The notes under the pieces: model-generated | Told to the model about the DNA's origin: nothing | Database searches by the model: none | The model's input: only the letters and a program-made list of their open reading frames with translations | Shown: positions 732 to 38,762 of the stretch, piece after piece | Layout: every line of letters begins with the position of its first letter | Numbering within the stretch: position 1 is the first letter of the stretch | Program-made: the position numbers and the translations under genes | NCBI GenBank assembly: GCA_946630825.1 | Contig: CAMOZG010000001.1 | Location: 1 to 46,171, forward strand | Reading direction: 5' to 3' | DNA from: an uncultured Lachnospiraceae bacterium | Lineage (GTDB): Bacteria; Bacillota; Clostridia; Lachnospirales; Lachnospiraceae | DNA length: 46,171 nt

Positions 732-762
732 ACAAAAAAGGATCTCGTAAAGAGATCCTTAA
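732..762 (-). terminator. Rho-independent terminator downstream of serS
   Basis: Minus strand reads AAGGATCTC-TTTAC-GAGATCCTT (9-bp stem, 738-746 / 752-760) running into TTTTTTG. It starts 16 nt after the serS stop codon. Confidence 0.7.
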
Positions 763-776
763 AAACCTTAGAAAGA

Positions 777-2060
777 TTATGCAGGAATAAGCACTTTCGT
801 GCCGCCCATATACGGCTGCAACACCTCAGGGATCCTTACGCTTCCGTCTGCCTGGAGATTGTTCTCTAAAAATGCGATAAGCATTCTCGGAGGTGCCACC
901 ACTGTGTTGTTAAGAGTGTGGGCAAAGTATTTGTCCTTGCCGCTTCTGACTCTGATGCCAAGTCTTCTTGCCTGGGCATCTCCTAAGTTGGAGCAGCTTC
1001 CCACCTCAAAGTATTTCTTCTGTCTGGGGCTCCATGCCTCCACATCACAGGATTTCACCTTCAGATCTGCCAGATCTCCTGAGCAGCACTCCAGGGTGCG
1101 GACAGGGATATCCAGACTTCTGAAAAGATCCACTGTGTTTTGCCAGAGCTTGTCATACCACTCCATGGATTCCTCCGGCTTGCAGACCACTATCATTTCC
1201 TGTTTTTCAAACTGATGTATACGGTATACTCCCCTTTCCTCTATACCATGGGCACCCTTTTCCTTTCTGAAGCAGGGTGAATAGCTGGTAAGGGTGTAGG
1301 GCAGGGATTCCTCGTCATTTATGGTGTCTATGAATTTACCGATCATGGAGTGCTCTGAGGTACCTATGAGGTAGAGATCCTCTCCCTCGATCTTGTACAT
1401 CATGGCATCCATTTCCTCAAAGCTCATGACCCCGGTCACCACATTGGAACGGATCATGAAGGGAGGTACGCAGTAGGTAAAGCCCCTGTCGATCATAAAG
1501 TCTCTGGCATAGGCTATTACGGAGCTGTGAAGTCTGGCAATATCTCCCATGAGATAGTAAAAGCCGTTGCCTGCCACCTTTCCTGCAGCGTCCAGATCTA
1601 TGCCGTTAAAGCGCTCCATTATCTCTGTATGATAGGGGATCTCAAAATCGGGAACCACCGGATCACCAAACCTTTCGATCTCCACATTCTTGCTGTCGTC
1701 CTCACCTATGGGAACCGAAGGATCTATGATGTTGGGGATCACCATCATCCTCTTTTTGATCTCCTCGGAGAGAGTGGACTGCTTCTCCTCCAACTCAGCT
1801 AAGCGCTCTGCATTCTTTGCCACCTCAGCCTTTACTGCCTCGGCTTCATCTTTTTTGCCTTCCTTCATCAGACCGCCGATCTGCTTGGAGAGCACGTTCT
1901 TTTGATTTCTGAGATCATCCCCCTCCTGCTGGACAGCACGAACCTCTTTGTCAAGTTCTATGACCTCGTCCACTAAAGGAAGCTTCTTGTCCTGAAATTT
2001 TTTTCTAATATTATCCTTTACTATATCAGGATTCTCACGCAAAAATTTAATGTCTATCAT
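777..2060 (-). CDS. serS: seryl-tRNA synthetase
   Basis: 427 aa. N-terminal MIDIKFLRENPDIV coiled-coil arm and a class II aaRS core (FRKEKGAHG..., GSCSNLGDAQARRL), all typical of SerS. Confidence 0.97.
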   Translation of the reverse strand: MIDIKFLRENPDIVKDNIRKKFQDKKLPLVDEVIELDKEVRAVQQEGDDLRNQKNVLSKQIGGLMKEGKKDEAEAVKAEVAKNAERLAELEEKQSTLSEEIKKRMMVIPNIIDPSVPIGEDDSKNVEIERFGDPVVPDFEIPYHTEIMERFNGIDLDAAGKVAGNGFYYLMGDIARLHSSVIAYARDFMIDRGFTYCVPPFMIRSNVVTGVMSFEEMDAMMYKIEGEDLYLIGTSEHSMIGKFIDTINDEESLPYTLTSYSPCFRKEKGAHGIEERGVYRIHQFEKQEMIVVCKPEESMEWYDKLWQNTVDLFRSLDIPVRTLECCSGDLADLKVKSCDVEAWSPRQKKYFEVGSCSNLGDAQARRLGIRVRSGKDKYFAHTLNNTVVAPPRMLIAFLENNLQADGSVRIPEVLQPYMGGTKVLIPA

Positions 2061-2088
2061 TCTCTATCTATCTCCTATATAGCCAAAT

Positions 2089-3336
2089 CTAAAACCTACC
2101 GCTCAAGGGATATTTTGCAACTATGTCAGCAATGATGGCTCCGGCTTTTTCCACTCCTGCCTCGCCTTCATTTATTACGGTTGCTATGGCATCTGCCACC
2201 TTGTCAAAGTCATCTGTTCCGAGACCACGGCTGGTGGAGGCGGGAGTACCCAGACGGATACCGCTGGTAACGAAGGGTGACTTGGGATCGTTTGGTACTG
2301 TATTCTTGTTGGCTGTGATGTGAGCTCTATCCAAAAGCTTCTCCACTTCCTTACCTGTCAGATCCTTGGGAACCAGATTTACAAGCATCAGGTGATTGTC
2401 GGTACCTCCCGATACTATGGATACGCCCCTGTCCATAAGCCCCTTGCAAAGAGCCTGGGCATTATTTACTATGTTTTTGGCATAGTCGGAAAACTCAGGT
2501 GACAGTGCCTCCTTGAAGCAGACTGCCTTTGCCGCTATCACATGCATAAGAGGCCCACCCTGAATACCGGGGAAAACAGCCTTGTTAAAGTTATACTTTT
2601 CATTGGCTTCTTTGGTGGCAAGTATCAGTCCGCCTCTGGGTCCCCGAAGGGTCTTGTGGGTGGTGGTAGTCACAATGTCCGCATAGGGAACCGGAGACTC
2701 ATGCATGCCTCCTGCCACCAATCCTGCAATGTGAGCCATATCCACCATGAGTACGGCACCTACCTCATCAGCTATCTCTTTAAACTTCTTAAAGTCGATC
2801 TTTCTGGCATAGGCAGATGCACCTGCAATTATAAGCTTGGGTCTGCACTCCTTTGCCAGCTTCATCACATTGTCGTAATCAATAAACCCATCATCATTTA
2901 CACCATAGGGCACTATATTAAAGTACCTGCCGGAAAAATTAACCGGACTTCCGTGGGTCAGGTGTCCGCCGTGATCTAAGCTCATGCCCATGATGGTGTC
3001 TCCCGGCTCACATACAGCAAACTGCACAGCCATATTTGCCTGGGCTCCCGAATGGGGCTGTACATTTGCATAGTCAGCACCAAAAAGCTCTTTGGCTCTG
3101 TCTATGGCGAGCTGCTCTGCCACATCAACTATCTCACATCCGCCGTAATAACGCTTTCCGGGATAACCTTCCGCGTACTTGTTGGTAAGTACCGACCCCA
3201 TGGCGGACATTACTGCCGGGCTAACCCAGTTTTCCGAAGCTATAAGTTCTATGTGGTCTGACTGTCTGGCATACTCGTTGCAGATAACCTCTGCAATCTC
3301 GGGGTCAACATTTCTGATATCGTCTATTGAATACAT
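2089..3336 (-). CDS. glyA: serine hydroxymethyltransferase
   Basis: 415 aa. [27 protein letters not shown] and the PLP-lysine region [14 protein letters not shown] are canonical SHMT signatures. Confidence 0.97.
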
Positions 3337-3358: not shown

Positions 3359-5623
3359 TTATTTCTTTTTTACACCTATCCTGGTCTTCATCACATACCA
3401 AAGCTCTGTAGCGATACAGATGGATGAGTATGTACCGCAGATCACACCCACCAAAAGAGGCAGGGCAAACTCACGGATGGTTGACACACCTAAGATCAAA
3501 AGCATCAAAACCATGATGGCAGTGGTAATGGATGTGGATATGGATCTGGAAAGTGTCTGGGAGATACTCTCATTTGCCATGGCAGCATAACTTTCCGCGT
3601 CCTTTTTAAGCATACCGTGGGCATTCTCACGGAGACGGTCAAATATAACGATAGTATCGTTTACAGAGTAACCTATAACCGTAAGCATACATGCGATAAA
3701 CGCAGATCCCACAGAGATACGAGCCACTGCGTAAAGTGCCAGCACTACAAGCACGTCATGGATCAGTGCGATTATGGCAGATGAAGCAAATCTCAGATCC
3801 TTGAATCTGAACCAGATGTAAAGGAGCATCAGTATGGCTGCCACAATAACTGCTATGAGTGACTGTCTGCGCATCTCGCCACCTATGGTGGAGCTTATGT
3901 TTTCTGAAGATATCTTGTCCTCTGTGATACCAAAGTTTTCTTCAAACATGGTATTTAAAGCTTCACGCTCATCCAGATCGAGGGTACGGGTCTTGAAGAT
4001 AATGCCTGTACCGTCATCAACCTTTGAGGTCTGGATATCATTGTCACCGGTGATCTCTGATACCAGAGGAACTATGTCGCTGTCGATCTCAGAAAGGGAA
4101 TACTCTTTGTCAAAGTTTACAGTGGTTGAAGTACCGCCCAAAAACTCAAGGCTGTAGTTAAGTCCGTATCCCTTTACACTGTGTACCCCTATTGAAACCA
4201 ATCCTATACATATCACTAAAAGTGATACTCCGAAAAATGCCTTTCTTTTTCCGATAAAGTCAATGACCTTGACCTTCTTGGCGCGACCGTAAAGCTTTTC
4301 ATCAGTCAGCCCCACTGCATAGAGGCTTCTCATGATCCATCTTGTAACCGCAAGAGCTGTAAACATGGACAAAAGCACACCGATAGCCAGGGTCACAGCG
4401 AAGCCCTTTACCATACCGCTTCCAAGTCCGCCGAGGACTGCTGCGGCAATAAGGGTGGTTATATTTCCGTCTAAAATAGCAGACAAAGCCTTTTTGAAGC
4501 CTGATTCTATGGATGCTGCCACACCCTTGCCGGAAGCGATCTCCTCACGGATACGAGCAAAGATGATAACGTTGGCATCCACCGCCATACCGATGGAAAG
4601 GATGATACCTGCAATACCCGAAAGGGAAAGAGCAATGTCATACAGATATAATATAGCGATCATGATCACCGAGTAGATGGCGAGTGCCAAAGATGCTGCC
4701 AAACCGGGAAGCCTGTACATGGCGATCATAAAGAGCATTACGATTATAAGTCCTATTACTGCTGCCAAAAATGCAGTGGACAAAGCGTCAGATCCCAGTG
4801 TAGCTCCCACTACCCTTGACTCCAACTCCTCAAGCTGTACGTTAAGTCCACCGATCCTTATGAAGCTTGCCAGAGAGGATGCCTCTTCAAAGTCCTCCAT
4901 ACCGTTTATAACTGCCTGACCGTTGGTGATCTCTGCAGATACGGAAGGCACACTTACGAATTTGCCGTCATAGTAAATGGCTATGGTGTCTTCGTTATTG
5001 GCATAGGCCGCTCTGGTTGCCTCGGCAAAAGCCTCTGTACCTGAGTCATTAAGTGTAAGCTGTACCACAGGCTTCTGTGCACTGGTGTTTTTGTCCTGCT
5101 CATAGGATGCTACTGCAGACTGTACATCTGTACCTGTCAGTACCACATCACCGCTGGCAGTGAGTTCCTCTATGGATGCTGTAAGCTCATAGCCTGTATC
5201 CCCAAGTGTGTAGTTTTCATCTCCATTGTCATTTAAGTGACGGATGAAATACAGATCACCGGGTGAACCCAACTGCTCCAAAAGCTCGTTGGCATCCTTG
5301 ACTCCGGGAACCTCCACTGCTATACGGTCATCACCCACACGGTAAACCGTACCCTCGGTAGAGGAGTTTTCTCCCAGCTCTGAATCCACACGCTGCTGAA
5401 GCTTGTAGACCGTATCCTCCATCTCCTCGTCAGTGTATTTTCCACCCACTGCCTGATAGGTGATGGATACTCCGCCTGCCAGATCAAGTCCCAGCTTTAA
5501 GCTGTCATCTGTCTGGTTTTTTGTTCCGTTGATGATAGTTGCGGCATAAAAGCCCAATCCCCCTATGATCGCAATGATCAAAATGAGACTTACAACTCCC
5601 TGCCACTTTTTCATTCGCTTCAT
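3359..5623 (-). CDS. secDF: fused protein-export membrane protein SecDF
   Basis: 754 aa. N-terminal TM segment plus periplasmic-type P1 domain (LGLDLAGGVSITYQ), followed by two 6-TM RND-like halves (second half LEFLGGTS..., DTIVIFDRLREN). Confidence 0.92.
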   Translation of the reverse strand: MKRMKKWQGVVSLILIIAIIGGLGFYAATIINGTKNQTDDSLKLGLDLAGGVSITYQAVGGKYTDEEMEDTVYKLQQRVDSELGENSSTEGTVYRVGDDRIAVEVPGVKDANELLEQLGSPGDLYFIRHLNDNGDENYTLGDTGYELTASIEELTASGDVVLTGTDVQSAVASYEQDKNTSAQKPVVQLTLNDSGTEAFAEATRAAYANNEDTIAIYYDGKFVSVPSVSAEITNGQAVINGMEDFEEASSLASFIRIGGLNVQLEELESRVVGATLGSDALSTAFLAAVIGLIIVMLFMIAMYRLPGLAASLALAIYSVIMIAILYLYDIALSLSGIAGIILSIGMAVDANVIIFARIREEIASGKGVAASIESGFKKALSAILDGNITTLIAAAVLGGLGSGMVKGFAVTLAIGVLLSMFTALAVTRWIMRSLYAVGLTDEKLYGRAKKVKVIDFIGKRKAFFGVSLLVICIGLVSIGVHSVKGYGLNYSLEFLGGTSTTVNFDKEYSLSEIDSDIVPLVSEITGDNDIQTSKVDDGTGIIFKTRTLDLDEREALNTMFEENFGITEDKISSENISSTIGGEMRRQSLIAVIVAAILMLLYIWFRFKDLRFASSAIIALIHDVLVVLALYAVARISVGSAFIACMLTVIGYSVNDTIVIFDRLRENAHGMLKKDAESYAAMANESISQTLSRSISTSITTAIMVLMLLILGVSTIREFALPLLVGVICGTYSSICIATELWYVMKTRIGVKKK

Positions 5624-5714
5624 TTCCTTTGTCTCCTTGCTATATTATTTTTGAGGGGCTTGTGTAGCACTTTTTAATTAGCTGTAGCTACACTAGTACC
5701 CTTATAAACAATGG

Positions 5715-7088
5715 TTATTGCTCCTTTAGCTCCCGGGCAGCCTTAAGCATGATGGCACATTCTACCCGCTTTCTCATAAGAGCACAGCCCACCTCGTAGG
5801 TGCCTCTTATATCTCCGGTAAAATGATAGGCATTGGCGGCGCAGCCTCCGCTGCAGTAATACTTTGCAAAGCATTCGCTGCACTCTTTCCGGGAGTACAC
5901 ATTGCAGCCCTTGAACTCCTGTTGAAGTTCTTTATTCTGGATGCCATTATACACATCCCCTATCTTCATGCCGTCATTTCCCACAAACTGATGACAGGGA
6001 TAAAGCTCCCCGGTGGGAGTCACCGACAGATATTCCGTGCCGCTGCCGCAGCCTGAAAGCCTCTTATATACACAGGGACCTCCCTCCAGATCTATCATAA
6101 AGTGGAAGAAATTAAACTCCCTGTCGGTATCCATCCGCTCTGCCATTTCCGCAGCAAGCCTGTCGTACTCTTCGTAAAGCTCAGGCAGATCCTCCATGGT
6201 AAGGGCATACTGCTCATCCTCAGGAGCCACCACCGGCTCCACGGATATCTGCTTAAAGCCCAGATCCGCCAGATGAAGCACATCCTTTGAAAAATCCTTG
6301 TTGCCTGCGGTAAATGTACCTCTCACATAGTATCTGTCCTGGTTACGTGAGTCTGCAAGCTTTTTAAACTTTGGAACGATCAGGTCATAGCTTCCGTCTC
6401 CCCGGATAAAGGGTCTCATCCTGTCATGGACCTCTTTACGTCCGTCAATGGACAAAACCACGTTGTCCATCTCCCGGTTTACAAATTCCATCACCTCATC
6501 ATCCAAAAGTACGCCATTAGTGGTAAGAGTAAATCTGAAATGCTTGTCGTGTTCTTTTTCCACGGATCTGCCGTATGCCACAAGATCCTTTACCACCTGC
6601 CAGTTGAGAAGAGGTTCTCCTCCGAAGAAATCCACCTCCAAATTGTGACGGCTGCCGGAGTTTTCTATCAGAAAATCCAAAGCCTGCTTCCCCACTTCAA
6701 AGGGCATAAGCTCCGCTTTTTTCCCGTGATACAGCCCCTCTTCGGCAAAACAGTATTTGCAGGAGAGATTGCAGGCATGTGCCACATGGAGGCAAAGAGC
6801 TTTTACCACTGTGGGTCTTTTGGTGTAGTCAATGACCCTGTCCTTATACACATCCTCGGAAAACAGGTCTCCGGATTCTTTAAGCTGTCCGATCTCCTCA
6901 TATACTTCGCCAAGCTCATCCTCCGAAACTGAGGGATGCATGGACTTCATTTTGCTGAAAATGTCGTCCCTGTCATTGTCCTCATAGAGTCCCACCATGT
7001 CATAGGCGATATCATCAAATACATGAACGGCTCCGCTGTCCACATCCAGCACGATATTGTATCCGTTGTTTTTGTAACAGTGAACCAA
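5715..7088 (-). CDS. scfB: thioether cross-link-forming SCIFF peptide maturase (radical SAM / SPASM)
   Basis: 457 aa. Radical-SAM CX3CX2C motif (CNLSCKYC) and a C-terminal Cys-rich SPASM region (CGSGTEYLSV..., CSECFAKYYCSGGCAANAY). N-terminus MVHCYKNNGYNIVLDVDSGAVHV resembles known SCIFF maturases. It sits directly downstream of a SCIFF precursor. The start codon is TTG (revcomp of caa at 7086-7088), preceded by AAAGGAG. Confidence 0.9.
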   Translation of the reverse strand: MVHCYKNNGYNIVLDVDSGAVHVFDDIAYDMVGLYEDNDRDDIFSKMKSMHPSVSEDELGEVYEEIGQLKESGDLFSEDVYKDRVIDYTKRPTVVKALCLHVAHACNLSCKYCFAEEGLYHGKKAELMPFEVGKQALDFLIENSGSRHNLEVDFFGGEPLLNWQVVKDLVAYGRSVEKEHDKHFRFTLTTNGVLLDDEVMEFVNREMDNVVLSIDGRKEVHDRMRPFIRGDGSYDLIVPKFKKLADSRNQDRYYVRGTFTAGNKDFSKDVLHLADLGFKQISVEPVVAPEDEQYALTMEDLPELYEEYDRLAAEMAERMDTDREFNFFHFMIDLEGGPCVYKRLSGCGSGTEYLSVTPTGELYPCHQFVGNDGMKIGDVYNGIQNKELQQEFKGCNVYSRKECSECFAKYYCSGGCAANAYHFTGDIRGTYEVGCALMRKRVECAIMLKAARELKEQ

Positions 7089-7136
7089 ATCGGCTCCTTT
7101 CTGTCTGAATAGTTACCTGTATTTTTACAGCAAGGC

Positions 7137-7166
7137 GACCGGAGGGAAAGACTAACCCCTCCGGTC
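7137..7166 (-). promoter_or_regulatory. GC-rich intercistronic stem-loop between the SCIFF precursor and maturase genes
   Basis: Minus strand reads GACCGGAGGG-GTTAGTCTTT-CCCTCCGGTC, a perfect 10-bp stem. No U-tract follows it (GCCTTGCTGTAAAAA). This fits an mRNA stabiliser, processing site or partial attenuator rather than a full terminator. Confidence 0.5.
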
Positions 7167-7212
7167 CCCCGGTTTGTTATTCAATTAATACTAAACTAAA
7201 ACCCCTAAAAAA

Positions 7213-7356
7213 TTACTTACTGTTCTCGCACTTCTGATTGCCTACAGTGCATGATGTCTTGCAGGCAGACTGGCATGATGTCTGGCACTCACCGCATCCA
7301 CCTGTCTTAACTGTGTTGTTGAGCTTTTTTGTCTTAAGAGTCTTAATATGCTTCAT
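7213..7356 (-). CDS. scfA: six-cysteine ranthipeptide precursor SCIFF (47 aa; absent from the ORF track because it is under 60 aa)
   Basis: Hand translation of the minus strand gives MKHIKTLKTKKLNNTVKTGGCGECQTSCQSACKTSCTVGNQKCENSK, stop TAA. Six Cys lie in the C-terminal 27 residues. The sequence closely matches the SCIFF family core GGCGECQTSCQSACKTSCTVGNQ as I remember it. GGAGG lies 8 nt upstream of the ATG. Confidence 0.9.
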   Translation of the reverse strand: MKHIKTLKTKKLNNTVKTGGCGECQTSCQSACKTSCTVGNQKCENSK

Positions 7357-7430
7357 ACCTGATTCCTCCACTTTTGTCTAATGTGATCCCCGATCACAGG
7401 TCGTATCGGGACTATCTGAAAATCCGTGAC

Positions 7431-7459
7431 ATTGTACCATAAATACACTCTCTGGTCAA
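7431..7459 (-). promoter_or_regulatory. SigA-type promoter for scfA-scfB
   Basis: Minus strand reads TTGACC - 17 nt - TACAAT, with TGG immediately upstream of the -10 (extended -10). The -35 overlaps the dapL stop codon (7456-7458). The predicted leader is ~65-70 nt. Confidence 0.6.
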
Positions 7460-17598: not shown

Positions 17599-18195
17599 TT
17601 ATTTTCTGCCCCGATCCGATCCTCCGTGGAGTATGGGTGACAGGGGCTTGTAGATGAAAAGCGTGATCACCACCGACAGCATGGCTTTTACAAAGGTAAA
17701 GGGCACATTAAAGACCAAAAGACACTGGGGCAGGGTCTCCACCCTTGGAAGTATCATCTGATATGCCTCAATGATGGTCTCCTCACTCATTCCATATAGA
17801 TTGATATACATAGGGTATGTCAAAAACAGATTTGAGGGGAAGGAAAAGATCGCCATTATCACCGCACCTGAAAGGGCTCCAATGATGGCATTCCTTTTTG
17901 TCTTTTTCATGCCATATATGATCCCGGCAGGAAGCACAAATGATGCGCCTAAAATAAAGTTACACATCTCTCCCACCAAAGCTGACTGGGATACCGCCAT
18001 ATGGAGGATGTTTTTAACCAGACAGATGGCTACCCCGTACCAGGGTCCAAGTGCAAAGGCTCCTATAAGCCCCGGCAGATCCGACAGATCCATCTTGATG
18101 AATGCCGGCATAAGAGGCACCGGAAATTCAAAGTACTGCAACACAAAAGCCAACGCCGACAGCATGCCGGCAACCGCAAGGTTTCTTGTTTTCAT
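17599..18195 (-). CDS. ribU: ECF-transporter S component, riboflavin-specific
   Basis: 198 aa, about six TM segments. LQYFEFPVPLMPAFIKMDLSDLPGLIGAFALGP is typical of RibU/YpaA. An FMN riboswitch lies immediately upstream. Confidence 0.85.
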   Translation of the reverse strand: MKTRNLAVAGMLSALAFVLQYFEFPVPLMPAFIKMDLSDLPGLIGAFALGPWYGVAICLVKNILHMAVSQSALVGEMCNFILGASFVLPAGIIYGMKKTKRNAIIGALSGAVIMAIFSFPSNLFLTYPMYINLYGMSEETIIEAYQMILPRVETLPQCLLVFNVPFTFVKAMLSVVITLFIYKPLSPILHGGSDRGRK

Positions 18196-18203
18196 AATGT
18201 TCT

Positions 18204-18367
18204 CCTTTCTCTCATCCAGACTGTACTACAAGACCTATAATCTTGTAACTGTCGGCTCCGGAGTCTCACCGGATCCACCGAAGATCGGGTTGCGGGCTTC
18301 GTCCGGGCATATCATATACGATCTGCCCCTACATACCGCCGGTCGGGAATCACACCCTGTCTCGAAA
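18204..18367 (-). promoter_or_regulatory. FMN riboswitch (RFN element)
   Basis: Minus strand reads ...TTTCGAGACAGGGTGTGATTCCCGACCGGCGGTA...GAAGCCCGCAACCCGATCTTCGGTGGATCCGGTGAGACTCCGGAGCCGACAGTTACAAG...AGTCTGGATGAGAGAAAGGAG. All conserved RFN core blocks are present. The 3' P1 strand runs into the ribU Shine-Dalgarno sequence. Confidence 0.9.
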
Positions 18368-18384
18368 TTAATACTACCTTTATG

Positions 18385-18445: not shown

Positions 18446-19006
18446 TCATACTGTATAGTCTGCTTTGCCTCCCACTCCTATGTCGTCTAAGATACCCTTG
18501 GCTGCCCTCTGGTAAGGATCATCCTTGGGGGTGGCAATGGTGGTATTGGTGACACCGCCGGAGACATAGGTCCTGCCGCACTCCGGACAGGTGGCGGTGT
18601 GTATGGCTACTCCGCAGTGGAGCACCCTGCCTCCTTCCATAGCTGCCTTTTTGTAGGCATTGCTCACATGCTCCCCCTCATGGGCTCTGACTGCCGCCCC
18701 TGCTGCATTGGGGGAAATATGGGTAGGAGCTTTAAAGGAAACCTCTTCATCAGAACCGTCCTGATATTTTCTCTCACGACAAGTCCTGCACTTTTCCGGC
18801 GAAGATTCAAAGCCGGGTCTGGCATTGGGATCCTTGCCCTCTACGGTACGACCGTCAGCCCGCAGATTTTCTACCTGCCCATCCACCATGGCGGTACCAA
18901 AGGCACCTCCTACAGTGGAAGCTGCACGTCCTCCGTCGGCTCCCCATCCTGATGAGAAGGCCGGCTTATATGCACTTAATGCTGCATTTATGCCGCCTAC
19001 ATTCAT
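18446..19006 (-). CDS. putative zinc metalloprotein with HExxH and two CxxC pairs (SprA-related / CJM1_0395-like family, from memory)
   Basis: 186 aa. Gly/Ala-rich N-terminal third, CRTC (73-76), VRAHEGEH (HExxH at 109-113), CPEC (140-143). AAGGAG lies upstream of the ATG. It has its own promoter and terminator. Confidence 0.6.
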   Translation of the reverse strand: MNVGGINAALSAYKPAFSSGWGADGGRAASTVGGAFGTAMVDGQVENLRADGRTVEGKDPNARPGFESSPEKCRTCRERKYQDGSDEEVSFKAPTHISPNAAGAAVRAHEGEHVSNAYKKAAMEGGRVLHCGVAIHTATCPECGRTYVSGGVTNTTIATPKDDPYQRAAKGILDDIGVGGKADYTV

Positions 19007-21631: not shown

Positions 21632-22504
21632 TTAATACTTCTTCTGATCTTTGATCTCGCTATACAATCTGACATAGTGGTCATACCGTTCAGGATCCAT
21701 GTGCTCCTTTACGGCACAACCAGCTTCTCCCACGTGGGCACAGCCCGAAAACCTGCAATCGGCTTTCCACTCTCTTATCTCCGGGAAATTATCTCCCAGC
21801 TCCTCCGGTTCTATATGGGAAAATTCCACAGCTCCGAATCCGGGGGTATCCATAATATATCCCGCTGCCCCGGGCACATATAAAAGTTCCGAGTGTCTGG
21901 TGGTCTGACGGCCGCTCATGTGCTTTTTCATCAGATCCCCGGTCTCCATTACCACCTCATCCTGAATAAGGTTTATCAGTGAGGATTTTCCCACTCCCGA
22001 GGGACCTGCCACGGCAGTGACCTTTCCTCTTAAAACCTCTATCAGATCCTCACGACCCTCTCCGGTCCGTGCTGAGGTCTCTATCACTCTGTAGCCGATA
22101 TCTCTGTACCGTGATACTAAAACCCCTGCCTCGTTTTCATCCTCCTGCATAAGATCCGTTTTATTGATGCAAAGTATGATCTCCACTCCCTGGCTTTCCA
22201 TCCAGACTAAAAACCGGTCTAAAAGTCCCGTGTTTATATTGGGATTTTTGATGGCAAAGATCACCAGTGCCTGATCCACATTTGCCACAGGGGGACGGAT
22301 AAGCATGTTTTTTCTTTCCCTTATCTCTTCTATCTGTCCCTCCATATCACCCTCATGGGTAATGGATATAGAGACATTGTCCCCGGTAAGGGGCTTGATC
22401 CCCTGCTTTCTGAATATCCCCTTGGGACGGCATTCGTATACTCCGATCCCGGTGTCCACATAGTAGAAACCCGCCAGACTTTTTATGATACGTCCCTCTG
22501 TCAT
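21632..22504 (-). CDS. rsgA: ribosome small-subunit-dependent GTPase A
   Basis: 290 aa. OB-fold N-terminus (GRIIKSLAGFYYV), circularly permuted GTPase motifs (NKTDL ... GPSGVGKSSLIN) and a C-terminal zinc-finger region (CRFSGCAHVGEAGCAV). ATGA overlap with the prkC stop. Confidence 0.93.
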   Translation of the reverse strand: MTEGRIIKSLAGFYYVDTGIGVYECRPKGIFRKQGIKPLTGDNVSISITHEGDMEGQIEEIRERKNMLIRPPVANVDQALVIFAIKNPNINTGLLDRFLVWMESQGVEIILCINKTDLMQEDENEAGVLVSRYRDIGYRVIETSARTGEGREDLIEVLRGKVTAVAGPSGVGKSSLINLIQDEVVMETGDLMKKHMSGRQTTRHSELLYVPGAAGYIMDTPGFGAVEFSHIEPEELGDNFPEIREWKADCRFSGCAHVGEAGCAVKEHMDPERYDHYVRLYSEIKDQKKY

Positions 22505-24537
22505 TGCTTTTTAAATTTCACCGATCCGGAGCTTATCTCCTCTGATCTGCTGGAGTCCACGTAGTAGGTAAGGGTTCCCGTCTCTGTAGTCATGCCCGAG
22601 GCACTGCAGGTATCCCCGTCATCCACTGAGCCCTTGTACTGCTCATTGCCGGAGGCATCCGTCAGCACCACATAGGCGGAATCGTATTCACCCAGATCCA
22701 CATCCCAGGTGTACTTGTAGTACACTGACTCGGCACCCTTTGAAATAACCACAGATACAGAGCTTCCTATATCCACATAGCTGCCGGAGGCAGTGCTCTG
22801 GGAGATCACAAGTCCCTCTGCCACACTGTCGGAATACTCCGAGGTCACATTGCCCAAAGTCAGTCCCACATCAGAAAGAGCCGTGGAGGCATCCTGCTGG
22901 GTCTTTCCTGTCAGGGTGGGAACCTTTACGGATTCCACTCCCTGGCTTACAAGGATGGTTACGGTATCTCCCTCCTTGCCCTTGGAGGCTGCATCAGGAG
23001 TCTGGGAAATTACCTTGCCCTGCTCCACTTCCTTGCTGTGCTCATAGGTCACATTGACCTGGAATCCGGCTCCGTTAAGTGCGGATTTGGCATTGGCTTC
23101 ATCCTGCCCCTTTACATCCGGGATCTCTATTTCTCCCTTTCCTGAGGAAAGAGTCACCTCTACGGTGGTATTTTTCTCAACCGTGCTTCCGGCTGCCACG
23201 GACTGTTCTATGATCTGTCCCTCTTCGTAGTCTTCCGAAGAAGCCTCTCCTGTCTTGTGATAGCCCAGACCCAGCTCCCTTAAGGCAAGCTTTGCCTCAT
23301 CCTCTGTCATTCCCAAAAGATCGGGCATCTCTATGTCGCCGGTCTCCTCTGTGGTCTCCTGCTCAACCTGGGGTTCCTCTGTGGTCTCTTCTGCGGTCTT
23401 TTTTCCAAAGTGGAAAAGCCCGAAAAAGCTGCCCACCAGATATATCACCAGCACCACTATCACTACAGCCGCAGCTATTCCCATGATGCGGATCGCCTTG
23501 TCCATCTTGGGATTTATGAGTCCGTCGTCATCCTCATCATCCTCTTCGTCTATCACAGGCTCCGGACGTCTAACATTGTTATTGGTCTTTGGTGTCTTTT
23601 TTACAGGCTCGTCATTTATGATCCCTGCCTGCTCCTGTATCTTTTTGACCTCATCATCTGTAATGACTCTGGTTTTTTCCGCCTCATCCCCGTCGGGTAT
23701 GGTGACAAAATCCTCCTCGGGATTGACCAATGCGCGCTTTAAGTCACTTAGCATATCCTCCATAGAACCGTATCTGCGATCCTGGTTTTTCTGAGTGGCT
23801 TTTAAGATGATCTTTTCCACGGATATGGGCAGATCCGGTGCATACTTTCCGGGAGGCACCATCTCCCCCTGAAGATGTTGCAGTGCAATCGCCACTGTGG
23901 TATCACCGTCAAAGGGCACCCGTCCCGTGCACATCTCATACATGACTATACCTAAGGAATAGATGTCACTCTGGTATGTAACATAGCCGTTTCTCGCCTG
24001 CTCCGGTGATGAGTAATGAACCGATCCCATGATATCCGCATTGATGGTATTGGAGGTGGCAGCTCTGGCTATACCGAAGTCTGTAACCTTGACCTTGCCC
24101 TCCTTGGAAATGATTATATTCTGGGGCTTTATATCCCGGTGTACTATCTCCTTTTTATGTGCCGCTTCTATACCTCTGCCCACCTGGATTGCAATGGAAA
24201 TGACCTCATTGTAGGTAAGCTGGCCTTTTTTGGAAATATAGGTCTTGAGGGTGATGCCCTCCACGTACTCCATTACGATATAGTACATGCCGTTTTCGGC
24301 GCCCACATCATAAATATTTACTATATTGGGATGCTCAAGTCCTGCTGCAGCCTGAGCCTCCTGACGGAATTTGGAGACAAAGCCGGAATCCTGCGCATAT
24401 TCTGATTTTAAAACCTTGACTGCAACCTCCCGTCCCAGTGAGTGATCCATGGCTTTATATACATCACTCATGCCGCCGGCACCTACTTTTTCAAGTATCT
24501 CATATCTGTCAGCAAGGTAAGTTCCATTTTCTAACAT
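22501..24537 (-). CDS. prkC: PASTA-domain Ser/Thr protein kinase
   Basis: Complete Hanks kinase domain (GAGGMSDVY, VAVKVL, HRDIKPQN, DFG, SPEQ), acidic linker, one TM helix, three PASTA repeats and a C-terminal beta-rich domain. I prefer the start at 24537 (MLENGTY), which has GGGAGGAG 7 nt upstream. The ORF-track start is 24558. Confidence 0.93.
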   Translation of the reverse strand: MLENGTYLADRYEILEKVGAGGMSDVYKAMDHSLGREVAVKVLKSEYAQDSGFVSKFRQEAQAAAGLEHPNIVNIYDVGAENGMYYIVMEYVEGITLKTYISKKGQLTYNEVISIAIQVGRGIEAAHKKEIVHRDIKPQNIIISKEGKVKVTDFGIARAATSNTINADIMGSVHYSSPEQARNGYVTYQSDIYSLGIVMYEMCTGRVPFDGDTTVAIALQHLQGEMVPPGKYAPDLPISVEKIILKATQKNQDRRYGSMEDMLSDLKRALVNPEEDFVTIPDGDEAEKTRVITDDEVKKIQEQAGIINDEPVKKTPKTNNNVRRPEPVIDEEDDEDDDGLINPKMDKAIRIMGIAAAVVIVVLVIYLVGSFFGLFHFGKKTAEETTEEPQVEQETTEETGDIEMPDLLGMTEDEAKLALRELGLGYHKTGEASSEDYEEGQIIEQSVAAGSTVEKNTTVEVTLSSGKGEIEIPDVKGQDEANAKSALNGAGFQVNVTYEHSKEVEQGKVISQTPDAASKGKEGDTVTILVSQGVESVKVPTLTGKTQQDASTALSDVGLTLGNVTSEYSDSVAEGLVISQSTASGSYVDIGSSVSVVISKGAESVYYKYTWDVDLGEYDSAYVVLTDASGNEQYKGSVDDGDTCSASGMTTETGTLTYYVDSSRSEEISSGSVKFKKQ

Positions 24538-24538
24538 C

Positions 24539-25291
24539 TCACATCTCCTCCCGAACATCTATCAAAAGCAGAGTAACATTGTCCCTGCCACCGTTTTTCA
24601 AAGCCATATCCAAAAGACTCAGCGCCTTTTGCTTAACCTTACTTTCACCTGCCAGGACTTTTTCTATGTCCTCATCACTGACCATATTGGAAAGACCGTC
24701 TGTACACATGAGCACCTGGTCGATATCCTCATAGGCAACATCAAATATGTCCACCCTTACCTCCGGCTCTGCCCCTACAGCTCTGGTTATAACGTGCTTT
24801 TTCTCCCGGGCGATCTCGGAGTCTTTGTCCAGATTTCCGCTGCTTATAAGCTCCTGCACCACGGAATGATCCCGGGTGATCTGGGTCAGGATACCGTTTT
24901 TCATCACATAAAGACGCGAGTCTCCCACATTTGCCACATACAGATGTCCGTCATAAAAAGTGGCTGCCACCATGGTAGTCCCCATGCCAAGCTTGGTGAT
25001 ATCCTTTTGAGCCATATCGTATATCCCGGCATTGGCAGCGTTAATGGCTGATTCCAGCACCGGCACCGGCTCCTTTTTCTCTTTTTTTCTGATCTCATCA
25101 AGGACGATCTGTACCGCATGTTCGGAAGCAAATTCACCTGCCAGATGGCCGCCCATCCCGTCAGCGATGACAAAAAGATTGTTAAGCGCTCCCGTGCCGG
25201 TGTCAGATGCAAATACATAGTCCTGATTGGACTCTCTTATTCTGCCCTTGTCTGTGATAGCAAAAAATAACATAGCTATCCATTCCTCCAA
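24539..25291 (-). CDS. stp: PP2C-family Ser/Thr phosphatase (Stp1/PrpC type)
   Basis: 250 aa. RESNQD, IADGMGGH, NVGDSR, LMCTDGL, GGRDN motifs. Conserved position upstream of prkC. Confidence 0.92.
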   Translation of the reverse strand: MEEWIAMLFFAITDKGRIRESNQDYVFASDTGTGALNNLFVIADGMGGHLAGEFASEHAVQIVLDEIRKKEKKEPVPVLESAINAANAGIYDMAQKDITKLGMGTTMVAATFYDGHLYVANVGDSRLYVMKNGILTQITRDHSVVQELISSGNLDKDSEIAREKKHVITRAVGAEPEVRVDIFDVAYEDIDQVLMCTDGLSNMVSDEDIEKVLAGESKVKQKALSLLDMALKNGGRDNVTLLLIDVREEM

Positions 25292-31347: not shown

Positions 31348-32865
31348 CTATTCTCCCATTTCTTCCATTATCTCCCGGATCAGCACCCTTTCATCCATGG
31401 GGTATTTTTTTCCATGTATCTCCTGGTAATCCTCATGACCCTTTCCTGCAAGCACTATTACATCCCCGGGCTGTCCGTTTTCTATGCAGTAGCGGATGGC
31501 TTCCTTCCGATCCGGTATGGTCACATATTCTCCGGTGGTCTTTTTTATGCCCCCTTCGATTATGTCATTTATAATGTCCATGGGCTCCTCGTCCCTGGGA
31601 TTGTCGGATGTCACCACCGTAAGGTCAGCCAGCCTTCCCGACACCTCACCCATTTCAAAGCGCCGAAGCTTTGACCGGTTGCCGCCGCAGCCAAAGAGAC
31701 ATACCAGCCTTCCGGGTTCGTACTCCTTTAGGGTGGTAAGCAGGCTTTCAAGTGCCATGGCATTGTGGGCATAGTCTATCATAAGAGAAAAGTCATCCGA
31801 CACATGGACCATCTCGATCCTGCCCTTGGCATGGGCTTTTTTAAGCGCCTCCTGCATCACAGCCGCATCCACTCCGTAGTGGTGACAGATGGCTATTGCC
31901 GTTAAGGTATTATATACGGAAAAAATGCCGGGTACGTGGGCCTCTACTTTGAAATTTTCCAGCCCCACAGCGTCATATCTGATACCTAAAAATCCGTTTC
32001 CGGTAAAAAGCTCTATATTTTTTGCAGTCAGATCATTTTTCTCATCCAGTCCGTAAGTATTTACGGTACAGGTATGACCCTTTAATATGGCATCCTTATG
32101 CTCATCATCCCCGTTTACTATTCCGTGACGGCATTTTGTAAAAAGCAGGGACTTGCATCTGAGATAATCCTCGAAATCCTTGTGCTCGTTTGGTCCGATA
32201 TGATCCGGGGAAATATTTGTAAATATCCCCAGCTCAAAGGTGAAACCGTCCACCCTGTGCATCATAAGCCCCTGGGAAGAGACTTCCATGACACAGACCT
32301 CTATGCCGAGATCTGCCATGCGCTTAAAATCCCTCTGAATGATGTAGGACTCAGGAGTGGTATTTACAGCAGGGATATGCTCCTCTCCGATTATGGTCTC
32401 TATGGTACCTATAAGCCCCACCTTTTTCCCTGCATTTTCCAAAATAGACTTTACCATGTAGGTGGTGGTGGTCTTGCCCTTGGTTCCCGTAATACCGATC
32501 ACTGACAGCTTCTCCGCCGGATGGTCAAAATATGCCGCAGATAAAAATGCCAAAGCCTCTCTGGTATCCTCCACGGTTATTATATTAAGCTTTTTAAGAT
32601 CCGAATTATCCGCCAGAGAGGAAAGCTTTTTTTGAACCTCATCAGTAACAGCGGATCTTGTCTCCATTACCACTAAGGACGCTCCCGCATTTATTGCCTC
32701 GGTCACGGCACTGTGTCCGTCAAAGGCAGCTCCTTTTATACATACAAAGCAACAGCCCGGCTCTATTTTCCGGGAGTCGTATACAAGCTCTGTTATCTCC
32801 CCCTCAAGACTTCCGAATACATGCTTATACTCAAGTCTTTCAAGTAATCCCTTTATATCCTTCAT
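31348..32865 (-). CDS. murE: UDP-MurNAc-L-Ala-D-Glu:meso-diaminopimelate ligase
   Basis: 505 aa. GITGTKGKTTT P-loop, DYAHNA, and DNPR motif (SDNPRDEEP), which is typical of meso-DAP-adding MurE. Confidence 0.92.
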   Translation of the reverse strand: MKDIKGLLERLEYKHVFGSLEGEITELVYDSRKIEPGCCFVCIKGAAFDGHSAVTEAINAGASLVVMETRSAVTDEVQKKLSSLADNSDLKKLNIITVEDTREALAFLSAAYFDHPAEKLSVIGITGTKGKTTTTYMVKSILENAGKKVGLIGTIETIIGEEHIPAVNTTPESYIIQRDFKRMADLGIEVCVMEVSSQGLMMHRVDGFTFELGIFTNISPDHIGPNEHKDFEDYLRCKSLLFTKCRHGIVNGDDEHKDAILKGHTCTVNTYGLDEKNDLTAKNIELFTGNGFLGIRYDAVGLENFKVEAHVPGIFSVYNTLTAIAICHHYGVDAAVMQEALKKAHAKGRIEMVHVSDDFSLMIDYAHNAMALESLLTTLKEYEPGRLVCLFGCGGNRSKLRRFEMGEVSGRLADLTVVTSDNPRDEEPMDIINDIIEGGIKKTTGEYVTIPDRKEAIRYCIENGQPGDVIVLAGKGHEDYQEIHGKKYPMDERVLIREIMEEMGE

Positions 32866-33506
32866 TTTTGATCTCCTGCTTTATTTATTGCTTTTTCAAG
32901 TTCCTTCACCGTAAAGTACCGGTCTCCCGGATCCTCTGACATGCCCTTTTTTATGATCGCGGTAAGAGCCCGTCCACGGCTTCCCATGAAAAAAAGCCGT
33001 CTTTTGTATACTGCATCCAAGGTGGCACATATACCATACACATCCACCCTGAAGTCCAGGGATCCCATAGGCGCCATCTGCTCCGGTGCAGCATAGCCTT
33101 TGGTGCCAAAGCTGTCCTTTGGAGCCAGTCCGTCCATCACCATAGGACAGCCTCCGTCTATGTCAATAAGCACCACTCTTTTTATATCTTTCGCAGCTTT
33201 GGTTATGATCACATTTTCCGGCTTCATATCGCAATAGAGCCAGGGCGGCGTCAGACTGTGGAGGTAGGATATGGCGCTGCACAGCTTTTTTCCTATGTAT
33301 ATGACATCCTCTGCCGAAAGTCCGCCTTCCTCACCGGCAAGATCCTTTAGGGTTGTCTTTCCCACATCCTCCATGGTTATAAGGGTATCCCCCTTATCTG
33401 TTTCCTCTAGGGATATGGTATGAACTATATTTGGATGATCTATCTTAAGTAAAAATTCAAGATCCCGGGCAGGCTTTTTGCAGGTCTTTGTAAAGTAAGT
33501 CTCCAT
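32862..33506 (-). CDS. N-lobe-truncated protein-kinase-fold protein (possible pseudokinase, 214 aa)
   Basis: It aligns by eye to PrkC of this same window from helix alphaC onward (LKIDHPNIVH vs GLEHPNIVN). Catalytic-loop remnant YCDMKPEN, DIDG in place of DFG, GYAAPEQ (APE). There is no Gly-rich loop and no VAIK lysine. Only 8 nt separate its ATG from the proA stop, so no upstream extension is possible. ATGA overlap with the murE start. Confidence 0.7.
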   Translation of the reverse strand: METYFTKTCKKPARDLEFLLKIDHPNIVHTISLEETDKGDTLITMEDVGKTTLKDLAGEEGGLSAEDVIYIGKKLCSAISYLHSLTPPWLYCDMKPENVIITKAAKDIKRVVLIDIDGGCPMVMDGLAPKDSFGTKGYAAPEQMAPMGSLDFRVDVYGICATLDAVYKRRLFFMGSRGRALTAIIKKGMSEDPGDRYFTVKELEKAINKAGDQK

Positions 33507-35648: not shown

Positions 35649-36101
35649 TTAAAAATGCAAATACTTTGCTTCGATAGCCTTAATATCGGCTATACGCTCA
35701 TCATGTCTGCCTCCCTCATACTCTGCTCCAAAATAGGCATCAAGTATGGCGTGGGCTGTTTCGGTACCCACTATCCGCGCCCCGAAGGCTATGATATTGG
35801 CATTGTTATGTCTCTTTACTAAAGCTGCAGTCACCGGTTCCGAACAGACTGCCGCCCTTATGCCGGGAACCTTGTTGGCAGAAATGGATATACCCACTCC
35901 CGTACCGCAGATCAATACTCCGCAGTCCACCTTGGAGGATGCCACCGCTTCTCCCACCGCCAGGCCGTACTCGGTATAGCTGTCAGCCCCGGTACTGTCT
36001 GTACCCATATCTATGACTTCATATCCCTTGTTTTCGAGATATTCTACCACGTCCTTTTTCAGCTCCACCGCAGCGTGATCATTTCCAATCGCTACCTTCA
36101 T
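35649..36101 (-). CDS. rpiB: ribose-5-phosphate isomerase B
   Basis: MKVAIGNDHAAVELK..., LICGTGVGISISANK, catalytic Cys region. The start is set at the ATG at 36101 (GAGGAAGGTGG upstream). The ORF-track start at 36233 would run through the yqeG 3' end. Confidence 0.92.
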   Translation of the reverse strand: MKVAIGNDHAAVELKKDVVEYLENKGYEVIDMGTDSTGADSYTEYGLAVGEAVASSKVDCGVLICGTGVGISISANKVPGIRAAVCSEPVTAALVKRHNNANIIAFGARIVGTETAHAILDAYFGAEYEGGRHDERIADIKAIEAKYLHF

Positions 36102-36115
36102 AATTCCACCTTCCT

Positions 36116-36652
36116 CTATTTTTTTAGCGGCACCGGGGCATCCTCTCCCCATATGCCTTTTTTGATTCCATATACAAAAAGCACTAAAGCCTCGGCAAAC
36201 CTTTTTAGTATGATCTGTGGTTCTTCCTTCCATTTAAGCACAGGCTTTGTCATGATGCTTCTGATGCCGCTTCTGTTGGCGCCCCATATGTCCGTGAATA
36301 TCTGATCTCCGCAAAACAGTGTGGTCCCACTTTCCGTCCCAAGCCTCTTCATGGCTTCCATATATCCGGTCCTTGCAGGCTTATTGGCTTTATAGATATA
36401 TCCGGTGGCTCCCACCTCTTCCTTAAAGCTTTTGACTCTGGGCTCTCCATTATTGGACAAAAGCAGGGTCTTAAACCCCGTCCTTTTCAAGTAATCAAAA
36501 AACTCTATGGCTCTTTTGTCCCCATGGGCTCCGTGGGGCACTAATGTATTGTCCACATCAAAGATTATCCCTCTGTAGCCCTCACTGTAGAGCTTTTCAA
36601 AATCCACATCAAAGATAGAGTCCACATAGGCTCTCGGAAAAAGGCTTTTCAT
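36116..36652 (-). CDS. yqeG: YqeG-family HAD-IIIA phosphatase
   Basis: 178 aa. HAD motif I IIFDVDNTLV, motif II LLLSNN, C-terminal GDQIFTDI. Confidence 0.85.
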   Translation of the reverse strand: MKSLFPRAYVDSIFDVDFEKLYSEGYRGIIFDVDNTLVPHGAHGDKRAIEFFDYLKRTGFKTLLLSNNGEPRVKSFKEEVGATGYIYKANKPARTGYMEAMKRLGTESGTTLFCGDQIFTDIWGANRSGIRSIMTKPVLKWKEEPQIILKRFAEALVLFVYGIKKGIWGEDAPVPLKK

Positions 36653-38568: not shown

Positions 38569-38762
38569 ATCATGATATACTAAGTTTCTGTCAGTGACTC
38601 AGATCCTTAGATGCCTCTCTTAAGAATCGTTGTAAATCCTTTGAAAGTATTATATACCATAAGCATATAAAAATAAAGATTTCTTTTAGAGGGAGTCTGT
38701 GATAAAATGGTCGGAAATGTGAATTACAATGATGGCATTTACCAATAAAAAGGAGCAGCAAA

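Follow-up and report, generated by a model that had tools for sequence, protein, structure and literature searches.

What kind of peptide is encoded by a short, six-cysteine gene next to a radical-SAM gene in an uncultured Lachnospiraceae bacterium, and what might the organism use it for? [quoted passage not shown] The locus is, on its sequence, very probably a standard SCIFF ranthipeptide system. The scfA–scfB pair is real and of an already-known kind, a textbook copy of a system that is near-universal in Clostridia and that genome-mining papers list as a ubiquitous two-gene clostridial ranthipeptide cluster. The only fresh point about the pair is that it apparently sits in a single operon with secDF. 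The two genes are as follows:

7213..7356, minus strand: scfA, 47-aa SCIFF ranthipeptide precursor (TIGR03973, PF13165)
5715..7088, minus strand: scfB, 457-aa radical-SAM/SPASM SCIFF maturase, thioether-forming by homology (TIGR03974, Pfam, CteB)

A search with the family models had been proposed as a check, and both products score above the curated equivalog cutoffs. The 47-aa peptide reaches 85.4 bits against TIGR03973 (cutoff 50, E = 1.8e-24, model positions 1-43 of 43) and the 457-aa enzyme 760.5 bits against TIGR03974 (cutoff 425, E = 5.8e-229); ScfA also matches PF13165 with 87.4 bits (cutoff 27, E = 5.7e-25). These matches are far beyond chance. The initial annotation was thus right about a SCIFF precursor with a radical-SAM/SPASM maturase and about the two TIGR accessions it named, and its sequence-level statements (the ORF, the cysteine positions, the GGAGG, the promoter, the 124-nt gap and the CX3CX2C motif) are all correct. 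Standard annotation models name the pair automatically, and NCBI records of homologues bear such names.

The maturase shows the features expected of its family. Pfam finds Radical_SAM, Fer4_12 and SPASM domains, and the "not_ScfB" exception model NF040492 stays short of its cutoff of 855, at 577 bits. The radical-SAM motif is C106-X3-C110-X2-C113, and the seven-Cys SPASM motif for two auxiliary clusters consists of C347-X12-G-X4-C365, C403-X2-C406-X5-C412-X3-C416 and C435, with C339 and C444 in addition. None of these cysteines varies when ScfB and its homologues are aligned with CteB. The crystal structure of CteB (5WGG/5WHY) is the closest among solved structures and matches ScfB over residues 1-451 (E = 1.6e-176); the two proteins are 59% identical. 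The N terminus of CteB contains an RRE, and residues 1-95 of ScfB align with it; Pfam itself gave no RRE or PqqD match. The TTG start codon is consistent with the TIGR03974 alignment, which runs from residue 2, and with homologues that begin MVH or MIH. All of the nearest relatives of ScfB (75-84% identity) come from Lachnospiraceae, as MAGs or isolates, in keeping with a host in the class Clostridia, and are labeled [quoted passage not shown] in the database.

The precursor, MKHIKTLKTKKLNNTVKTGGCGECQTSCQSACKTSCTVGNQKCENSK, carries cysteines at positions 21, 24, 28, 32, 36 and 43 (CX2CX3CX3CX3CX6C, 47 aa). Its leader spans approximately residues 1-18, with the MKHIKTL motif, and its core is G19-Q41, GGCGECQTSCQSACKTSCTVGNQ. 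While more than 6000 homologues were matched in a large protein collection, the exact peptide is absent from it, with the best match at 91% identity. The window's ScfB is present in the same collection (P0121), which fits a gene caller that skipped the short ORF; shortness is also the most likely reason why scfA is missing from the supplied ORF track. No second SCIFF-like motif was found elsewhere in the window. Among 77 distinct DNA sequences, all 23 core residues are invariant and the changes are synonymous only (dN = 0), averaging 10.9 per 69 nt of core-coding DNA; the MKHIKTL motif shows little variation in the same set. An invariant core amid such abundant synonymous change indicates that ScfA is under purifying selection. 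Beyond the family, in which it is invariant, the core is near-invariant across orders.

A separate point concerns the Gly-Gly that follows the Lys-rich N terminus. The initial annotation took the leader to end in GG. The two glycines are present, but structural literature on CteA assigns residues 1-18 to the leader and begins the core at G19, so the GG is where the core begins, and there is no evidence for it as a double-glycine cleavage site.

Signals for expression were identified around both genes, and a structured element lies between them:

7431..7459, minus strand: predicted sigma-70-type promoter, TTGACC / 17-nt spacer / TG-extended TACAAT (consensus match)
7365..7369, minus strand: GGAGG ribosome-binding site, 8 nt 5' of the scfA ATG (read from sequence)
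7133..7170, minus strand: GC-rich stem-loop in the scfA–scfB spacer (folding and comparison with 77 loci)
7094..7100, minus strand: AAAGGAG ribosome-binding site, 5 nt 5' of the scfB TTG (read from sequence)

Of the five promoter-like sites in this region, the predicted promoter ranks first, with 10 of 12 consensus positions matched, and it overlaps the aminotransferase gene upstream at that gene's stop codon. The 124-nt spacer between the two genes, which lie on the same strand, has a minimum free energy (MFE) of -42.3 kcal/mol (z = -3.4) and holds a hairpin whose 11-bp stem (GACCGGAGGGG/TCCCTCCGGTC) closes a loop of 8 nt; it lacks a U-tract. A comparable hairpin occurs in 77/77 related loci, though the stem sequences differ, and in 69 of the 77 the MFE of the spacer gives z < -2. 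At least four T within the next 8 nt follow the hairpin in only 18/77. We infer that the stem-loop may act as a leaky terminator or a transcript-stabilizing element that sets the ratio of precursor to enzyme; given the missing U-tract, the choice between attenuator and stabilizer is a guess. A pattern scan for canonical intrinsic terminators found none behind either scfA or scfB. A leader RNA element in the scfA 5' UTR (7357..7425) was considered and rejected, as this region folds no better than shuffled sequences (z = +0.82). An Rfam scan of the whole window returned nothing at the scfAB locus, its sole match being an FMN riboswitch 11 kb away.

The closest well-studied counterpart is the CteA/CteB (thermocellin) system of Acetivibrio (Clostridium) thermocellus. 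It has the same gene order, precursor then maturase, with a spacer of ~150 nt, and secD/secF lie downstream, as secDF does here. CteB aligns end to end with ScfB with identical radical-SAM and SPASM cysteines, and CteA shares an identical core from C21 to C36, including Cys32 and Thr34, as well as Thr37. The two precursors differ in the leader (MKHIKTLKTKKLNNTVKT in ScfA, MKHIKILNGSTLKDSLKK in CteA), at position 39 (Gly in ScfA, Ala in CteA) and in their C-terminal tails. In addition, secDF is fused and directly adjacent to scfB in the window, whereas A. thermocellus has separate secD and secF genes, with one for an HD-domain protein between them and the maturase gene. Tte1186a/Tte1186 from Caldanaerobacter subterraneus belong to the same NCBIfam families. 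As related in reviews, through which the comparison was made, they were the first SCIFF system characterized in vitro, with one Cys32–Thr37 thioether reported. The rSAM/SPASM fold and non-alpha thioether chemistry are also common to PapA/PapB (freyrasin) and QhpD. Their models score ScfB below cutoff (PapB, 281 bits against 340; QhpD, 265 bits against 453), and the cross-links they form run from Cys to the C-beta or C-gamma of Asp or Glu within CX3D repeats, while the ScfA core has no Asp and one Glu (E23).

The thioether chemistry of ScfB can be proposed by homology to CteB and Tte1186. The initial annotation pointed to a conserved Cys32/Thr37 pair. Both residues are indeed conserved in the window's ScfA, which has Cys32 as donor and, as candidate acceptors, both Thr34 and Thr37. 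The acceptor, however, is disputed in the literature: according to two reviews, Thr37 is the in vitro assignment, while co-expression in E. coli joined Cys32 to C-gamma of Thr34. In the proposed scheme, scfA would be transcribed from its own promoter, and the stem-loop 3' of it would probably hold scfA transcripts above those of scfB. A putative N-terminal recognition domain of ScfB would bind the MKHIKTL leader, as CteB does with CteA. ScfB would then cleave SAM at the [4Fe-4S] cluster held by CX3CX2C, take a hydrogen from the methyl group (C-gamma) in the side chain of core Thr37 or Thr34 and join that carbon to the Cys32 sulfur, with two SPASM auxiliary clusters assisting. Only one of the six cysteines in SCIFF has an assigned fate.

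The genes that follow scfB suggest a longer transcription unit:

3359..5623, minus strand: secDF, fused, 754 aa (Pfam SecD_SecF_C, SecDF_P1_head, SecD_1st)
2089..3336, minus strand: glyA (Pfam SHMT)
777..2060, minus strand: serS (Pfam Seryl_tRNA_N, tRNA-synt_2b)
738..760, minus strand: canonical intrinsic terminator, 9-bp stem then TTTTTGTAATT, directly after serS, predicted unit end

The gap between scfB and secDF is 91 nt with no predicted terminator or promoter, so secDF is probably co-transcribed with scfAB. With gaps of 22 nt (secDF–glyA) and 28 nt (glyA–serS) and the canonical terminator after serS, scfAB appear to head a unit scfA–scfB–secDF–glyA–serS, in which glyA and serS are, with low confidence, the predicted distal genes. 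The secDF–glyA–serS order recurs in a subset of related loci. Upstream of scfAB, Pfam identifies an aminotransferase (DapL-like) and a PALP enzyme (CysK-like); the neighbor identities first given for both flanks (DapL-like and CysK-like upstream; SecDF, SHMT and SerS downstream) agree with the Pfam results.

How much of this context is conserved was assessed in a sample of 80 genomes and 120 metagenome loci. The scfA gene lies directly upstream of scfB, co-oriented with it, in 76/80 related loci, and the other four end at contig ends. In Lachnospiraceae genomes secDF follows scfB in 74 of the 76 that could be assessed, with a median gap of ~30 nt, and it does so in 34/41 metagenome loci with a Thr37-type peptide. 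At the experimentally studied A. thermocellus locus and in two relatives, secDF is found one or two genes downstream, and the genes that intervene (HD, hexapeptide transferase, HTH) are unrelated to it. Ruminiclostridium josui and Pseudoclostridium thermosuccinogenes have the pair flanked by yajC on one side and secD on the other. Conservation does not extend to the upstream flank (dapL in 0/51 loci, tgt in 4/51); dapL or cysK as a conserved upstream partner was rejected on the same 0/51 count. Since this flank is scrambled, the linkage to secDF has survived rearrangements. Among Gly37-type SCIFF loci, 0/14 have the linkage. The Gly37-type clade, which is without Thr37, has also lost the connection to secDF; under the export-operon reading taken up below, this would point to two functionally distinct SCIFF lineages. 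No paper mentioning SCIFF or ranthipeptides together with SecD was found in the open-access literature.

What the peptide does is best approached through its relatives. The SCIFF peptide is most likely, by extrapolation, a conserved regulatory or signaling peptide, quorum-sensing-like and not a bacteriocin. According to reviews, Chen et al. (2020) reported a quorum-sensing role for Clostridium beijerinckii and C. ljungdahlii, based on SCIFF mutants with sporulation genes down and agr up; this is one study in distant species. These systems are of the same two-gene biosynthetic gene cluster (BGC) type and the only members with reported mutant phenotypes. Both species belong to the Clostridiales, whereas the host here belongs to the Lachnospirales. 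The role was first described as unresolved, which is partly outdated in light of the 2020 report, although the function is still poorly defined. No receptor, exporter or protease for the peptide is identifiable at the locus.

A different possibility is that the modified peptide acts in the cell or membrane with YajC–SecDF, modulating SecDF or depending on it, or else senses redox state or metal through the five remaining ScfA thiols; in either case it would not be a diffusible signal. The linkage in Lachnospiraceae and in Thr37-type metagenome loci speaks for it, as do the position of the pair between yajC and secD in R. josui and P. thermosuccinogenes, the persistence of the linkage through upstream rearrangement, the lack of a dedicated exporter or protease in the window and an invariant core that suggests a conserved cellular partner. 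The linkage may instead be inherited order, for example an old insertion into tgt–yajC–secDF kept by operon inertia. Gly37-type loci do not share it, unrelated genes intervene in the A. thermocellus group, ScfA has no hydrophobic signal sequence, and the mutants described in print were taken to show quorum sensing. This reading is unlikely. The same doubt attaches to its evolutionary form, in which SCIFF would be a functional module of an ancestral (queA–tgt–)yajC–secDF export operon, with a ranthipeptide that has the SecDF/YajC accessory complex as its target or its handler; operon-like gaps and the persistence of the scfAB–secDF adjacency are compatible with this form.

An antimicrobial bacteriocin-type RiPP, cut after Gly-Gly and secreted through a transporter whose gene lies outside the window, is very improbable. 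A Lys-rich N-terminal region followed by GG and a Cys-rich peptide with a radical-SAM maturase, like sactipeptide bacteriocins, would suit such a product, and a distant transporter could exist, as the window shows only 46 kb of the genome. However, the GG after a charged N-terminal segment is the only likeness to double-glycine-leader (C39/ABC) bacteriocins, and in ScfA it is invariant as a part of the core, to which the CteA/CteB work assigns it. Peptidase_C39 and ABC_tran had no Pfam match among the ~47 ORFs covering the window, as the initial annotation had claimed for the peptidase and the exporter; an immunity gene cannot be judged in this way, since there is no general model for one and a few ORFs are without a Pfam match. 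The conservation of the core is the opposite of typical bacteriocin diversification. Reviews report that no species has more than one SCIFF copy and that nearly all Clostridia have one, and they speak against an antimicrobial function; the conclusion that the peptide is not a bacteriocin agrees with them, and the argument from ubiquity was already in print. The description of a purely housekeeping neighborhood with no export partner needs amending. It holds for an ABC exporter and C39 peptidase, but secDF is a conserved downstream partner while the upstream flank is not conserved, so the argument from context for an intracellular role is weaker than first stated. Finally, that scfA is a chance, untranslated frame, as its absence from the ORF track and of its exact sequence from the protein collection might suggest, can be dismissed given the E value to a curated model, the thousands of homologues, a core with dN = 0 under abundant synonymous change, a proper ribosome-binding site and predicted promoter and a cognate maturase gene adjoining it in every locus examined.

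The locus in the window itself matters little, as curated models already recognize scfAB, and core invariance, the spacer hairpin and the secDF linkage are none of them specific to it. Their value lies with the family. SCIFF peptides are among the most conserved RiPPs known, with a mature structure and function that are poorly defined. The invariance of the core under heavy synonymous turnover, the hairpin present in every locus examined and the tight, selective linkage of scfAB to secDF in Thr37-type but not Gly37-type loci are all features that could inform the design of experiments.

The window carries a real, ordinary member of the well-known SCIFF family of ranthipeptides, comprising a precursor gene (scfA) and a radical-SAM/SPASM maturase gene (scfB). 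The coordinates and residue positions of the initial annotation all proved correct when re-read from the sequence. From 5' to 3' on the minus strand, the features are:

7459..7431 (-), scfA promoter-like site TTGACC-17 nt-TACAAT with a TG before the -10, the region's top consensus match
7369..7365 (-), scfA ribosome-binding site GGAGG, 8 nt 5' of the ATG
7213..7356 (-), scfA, encoding MKHIKTLKTKKLNNTVKTGGCGECQTSCQSACKTSCTVGNQKCENSK as read by translation
7133..7170 (-), GC-rich hairpin without a clear U-tract in the scfA–scfB spacer, predicted by folding
5715..7088 (-), scfB, 457 aa, TTG start, AAAGGAG 5 nt upstream
760..738 (-), canonical terminator after serS, predicted from sequence

A GTG-started, 52-aa version of scfA is unlikely, as its start would fall within the GGAGG ribosome-binding site. 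The scfA peptide scores 85.4 bits (E = 1.8e-24, cutoff 50) against NCBIfam TIGR03973, "six-cysteine ranthipeptide SCIFF," and 87.4 bits against Pfam PF13165. ScfB, encoded downstream across a gap of 124 nt, scores 760.5 bits (E = 5.8e-229, cutoff 425) against TIGR03974, "thioether cross-link-forming SCIFF peptide maturase." The proposed identity of the pair is borne out, and both model accessions given for it were correct. Against NF040492, an exception model named "ScfB-related orphan maturase," ScfB reaches 577 bits, under the cutoff of 855, and it also falls under the cutoffs of PapB, QhpD, and every other rSAM/SPASM RiPP model. Its best match among solved structures is CteB, the SCIFF maturase of Acetivibrio thermocellus (5WGG/5WHY; E = 1.6e-176, residues 1–451, 59% identity), and in their alignment the CX3CX2C motif and every SPASM cysteine are invariant. 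The closest database relatives are Lachnospiraceae MAG proteins (75–84% identity) already named SCIFF maturases.

The protein collection yielded more than 6000 SCIFF peptides as scfA homologues. The exact 47-aa sequence is absent from that collection (best match 91% identity) and the window's ScfB is present in it, a combination that fits a gene caller passing over a short ORF and so a mundane reason for the unlisted status of scfA. Public gene calls often miss this type of gene, as here, or add a spurious N-terminal extension. Many of the database SCIFF entries (P0002–P0120) are 55–83 aa long, though the conserved peptide has 46–48 aa.

Conservation was assessed in 80 Lachnospiraceae genome loci fetched via ScfB alignment. 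The scfA gene lies upstream of scfB in 76 of them, the remaining four being cut by contig ends. Across these 76 loci and the window, the core from G19 to Q41 is identical in 77/77 sequences, while the DNA encoding it is distinct in every one, with a mean of 10.9 and a maximum of 21 synonymous substitutions per 69 nt. An invariant core with so many synonymous substitutions indicates strong purifying selection on the SCIFF peptide. In the same 77 sequences the MKHIKTL leader start is well conserved, and the mid-leader and tail are variable.

Two reviews (PMC8326336; PMC8172795) attribute the definition of SCIFF to Haft & Basu (2011). They also cite a single Cys32–Thr37 thioether formed in vitro in Tte1186a, the precursor of Caldanaerobacter subterraneus (Bruender 2016), and in CteA, the precursor of A. 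thermocellus (Grove 2017), and, from Hudson et al. (2019), a link to the Thr C-gamma and E. coli co-expression that placed it at Thr34. The published acceptor assignments therefore conflict. The Cys32/Thr37 pair noted earlier does include a Thr37 in the window peptide, but this is only one of the two assigned acceptors, and Thr34 is present too. In a subgroup of SCIFF loci Gly replaces Thr37, making a Cys32–Thr37 link impossible there, and this subgroup may bear on the dispute. In the CteB–CteA structure, the leader comprises residues -18 to -1, the core starts from G19, and Cys21 of CteA ligates the Aux I open site (PMC6231123). The GG that the initial annotation placed at the leader end is, in published numbering, the core start and is no known cleavage site.

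A strong spacer hairpin is found in all 77 loci (median best hairpin -23 kcal/mol), and in 69 of them the spacer MFE falls more than 2 SD below that of mononucleotide shuffles (median z = -3.5). Different families of stem sequence occur, GACCG...CGGTC (the window type) or AAGCAGCG...CGCTGCTT, indicating that structure rather than sequence recurs. Most of the 77 hairpins are missing a proper U-tract, and Rfam holds no family matching them. By analogy with other RiPP operons, we infer that the hairpin may serve as a leaky terminator or stabiliser that leaves the precursor message in excess of the enzyme message.

Downstream of scfB lie secDF (gap 91 nt), glyA (22 nt), and serS (28 nt). The stretch from the scfA promoter-like site to secDF occupies 3359..7459 (-). 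With neither terminator nor promoter predicted in the scfB–secDF gap, scfA-scfB-secDF-glyA-serS as a putative single transcription unit is the most economical reading. Rfam detects no T-box leader for serS (738..2088 region, -). Some of the related Lachnospiraceae loci repeat the secDF-glyA-serS order.

Neither a Peptidase_C39 nor an ABC transporter ATPase turned up in Pfam scans of ~47 ORFs spanning the window, in agreement with the absence reported earlier. Most genes have housekeeping functions, and almost all lie on the minus strand; they include a DapL-like aminotransferase, a CysK-like PALP enzyme, DAHP synthase, C69 peptidase, IspD, TsaD/B/E, a RibU-like ECF component preceded by an FMN riboswitch, GH25 lysozyme, Rpe, RsgA, PASTA kinase and PP2C, RlmN, RsmB, Fmt, Def, PriA, MurE, and EF-P. 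The riboswitch (RF00050, 77.2 bits, 18200..18373, -) is directly 5' of the S component (17599..18195), presumably a RibU-type riboflavin transporter. The PASTA Ser/Thr kinase (22501..24558, -) is grouped with PP2C, RsgA, and Rpe. Just 5' of the MurE-like ligase gene, with a 4-nt overlap into its start, lies a second kinase-like ORF (32862..33506, -; 214 aa). Its match is confined to the C-terminal two-thirds of the kinase domain, and the product may be a truncated or atypical kinase. An RpiB-like ORF (35649..36233, -) overlaps the upstream HAD hydrolase ORF (36116..36652, -) by 118 nt; its Pfam match starts at residue 47, and the true start is probably an internal codon. ORFs 18446..19006 (-), 38591..38884 (-), and 41316..41798 (+) / 41325..41792 (-), the last two being overlapping alternatives on opposite strands, have no Pfam match at E <= 1e-5.

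The housekeeping context had been taken to argue for an intracellular or signalling role. That argument has been made before and carries less weight than presented because the adjoining secDF is a component of the export machinery whose linkage to scfAB is the sole conserved neighbourhood feature. Wide SCIFF distribution has been said to speak against an antimicrobial role (PMC8326336), and the same source cites Chen et al. (2020) for SCIFF mutants with quorum-sensing-type phenotypes. According to a 2026 preprint, no species has more than one ranthipeptide in the three largest conserved groups of ranthipeptide BGCs across clostridial orders.

Among Lachnospiraceae loci with enough downstream sequence, secDF is 3' of scfB in 74/76, usually with a gap of 15–50 nt. 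Conservation is absent from the upstream flank, where dapL or cysK precedes scfA in 0/51 loci, and tgt or yajC in 4/51. In the three loci from Acetivibrio, Ruminiclostridium, and Pseudoclostridium (L081–L083), secD/secF are one or two genes 3' of scfB; the Ruminiclostridium and Pseudoclostridium loci also have yajC upstream. The experimentally studied A. thermocellus locus reads cteA-cteB-HD-secD-secF, and Ruminiclostridium josui has queA-tgt-yajC-DUF3792-scfA-scfB-(hexapeptide transferase)-secD-secF. Pseudoclostridium thermosuccinogenes matches R. josui upstream; its scfB is separated from secD by an HD gene and an HTH gene in inverted orientation. These orders place scfAB inside a widely conserved yajC–secDF neighbourhood.

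A further 120 metagenome loci, 55 of them assessable, were retrieved by searching DNA for a degenerate version of the core sequence; because this pattern fixed residues 21–36, the sample is uninformative on variation there. In Thr37-type loci, secD or secDF starts within 1.5 kb of scfB in 34/41, at ~200 nt or less in most. Gly37 loci (CKTSCG[VIL]ANQ; L086, L092, L095, L114, L117, L118, L124, L128, L131, L139, L151, L172, L198, and L201) have secDF downstream in 0/14 assessable cases. No mention of SCIFF or a ranthipeptide paired with SecD was found in the open-access papers searched.

The linkage may be inherited gene order. Nor does it show export through Sec, since SecDF assists the Sec pathway in general and a hydrophobic signal sequence is missing from the peptide. 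A functional connection between SCIFF and SecDF/YajC, together with a separate Gly37 lineage that lost it, seems to us improbable; if true, it would be moderately interesting and would bear on the whole family, not on the window locus.
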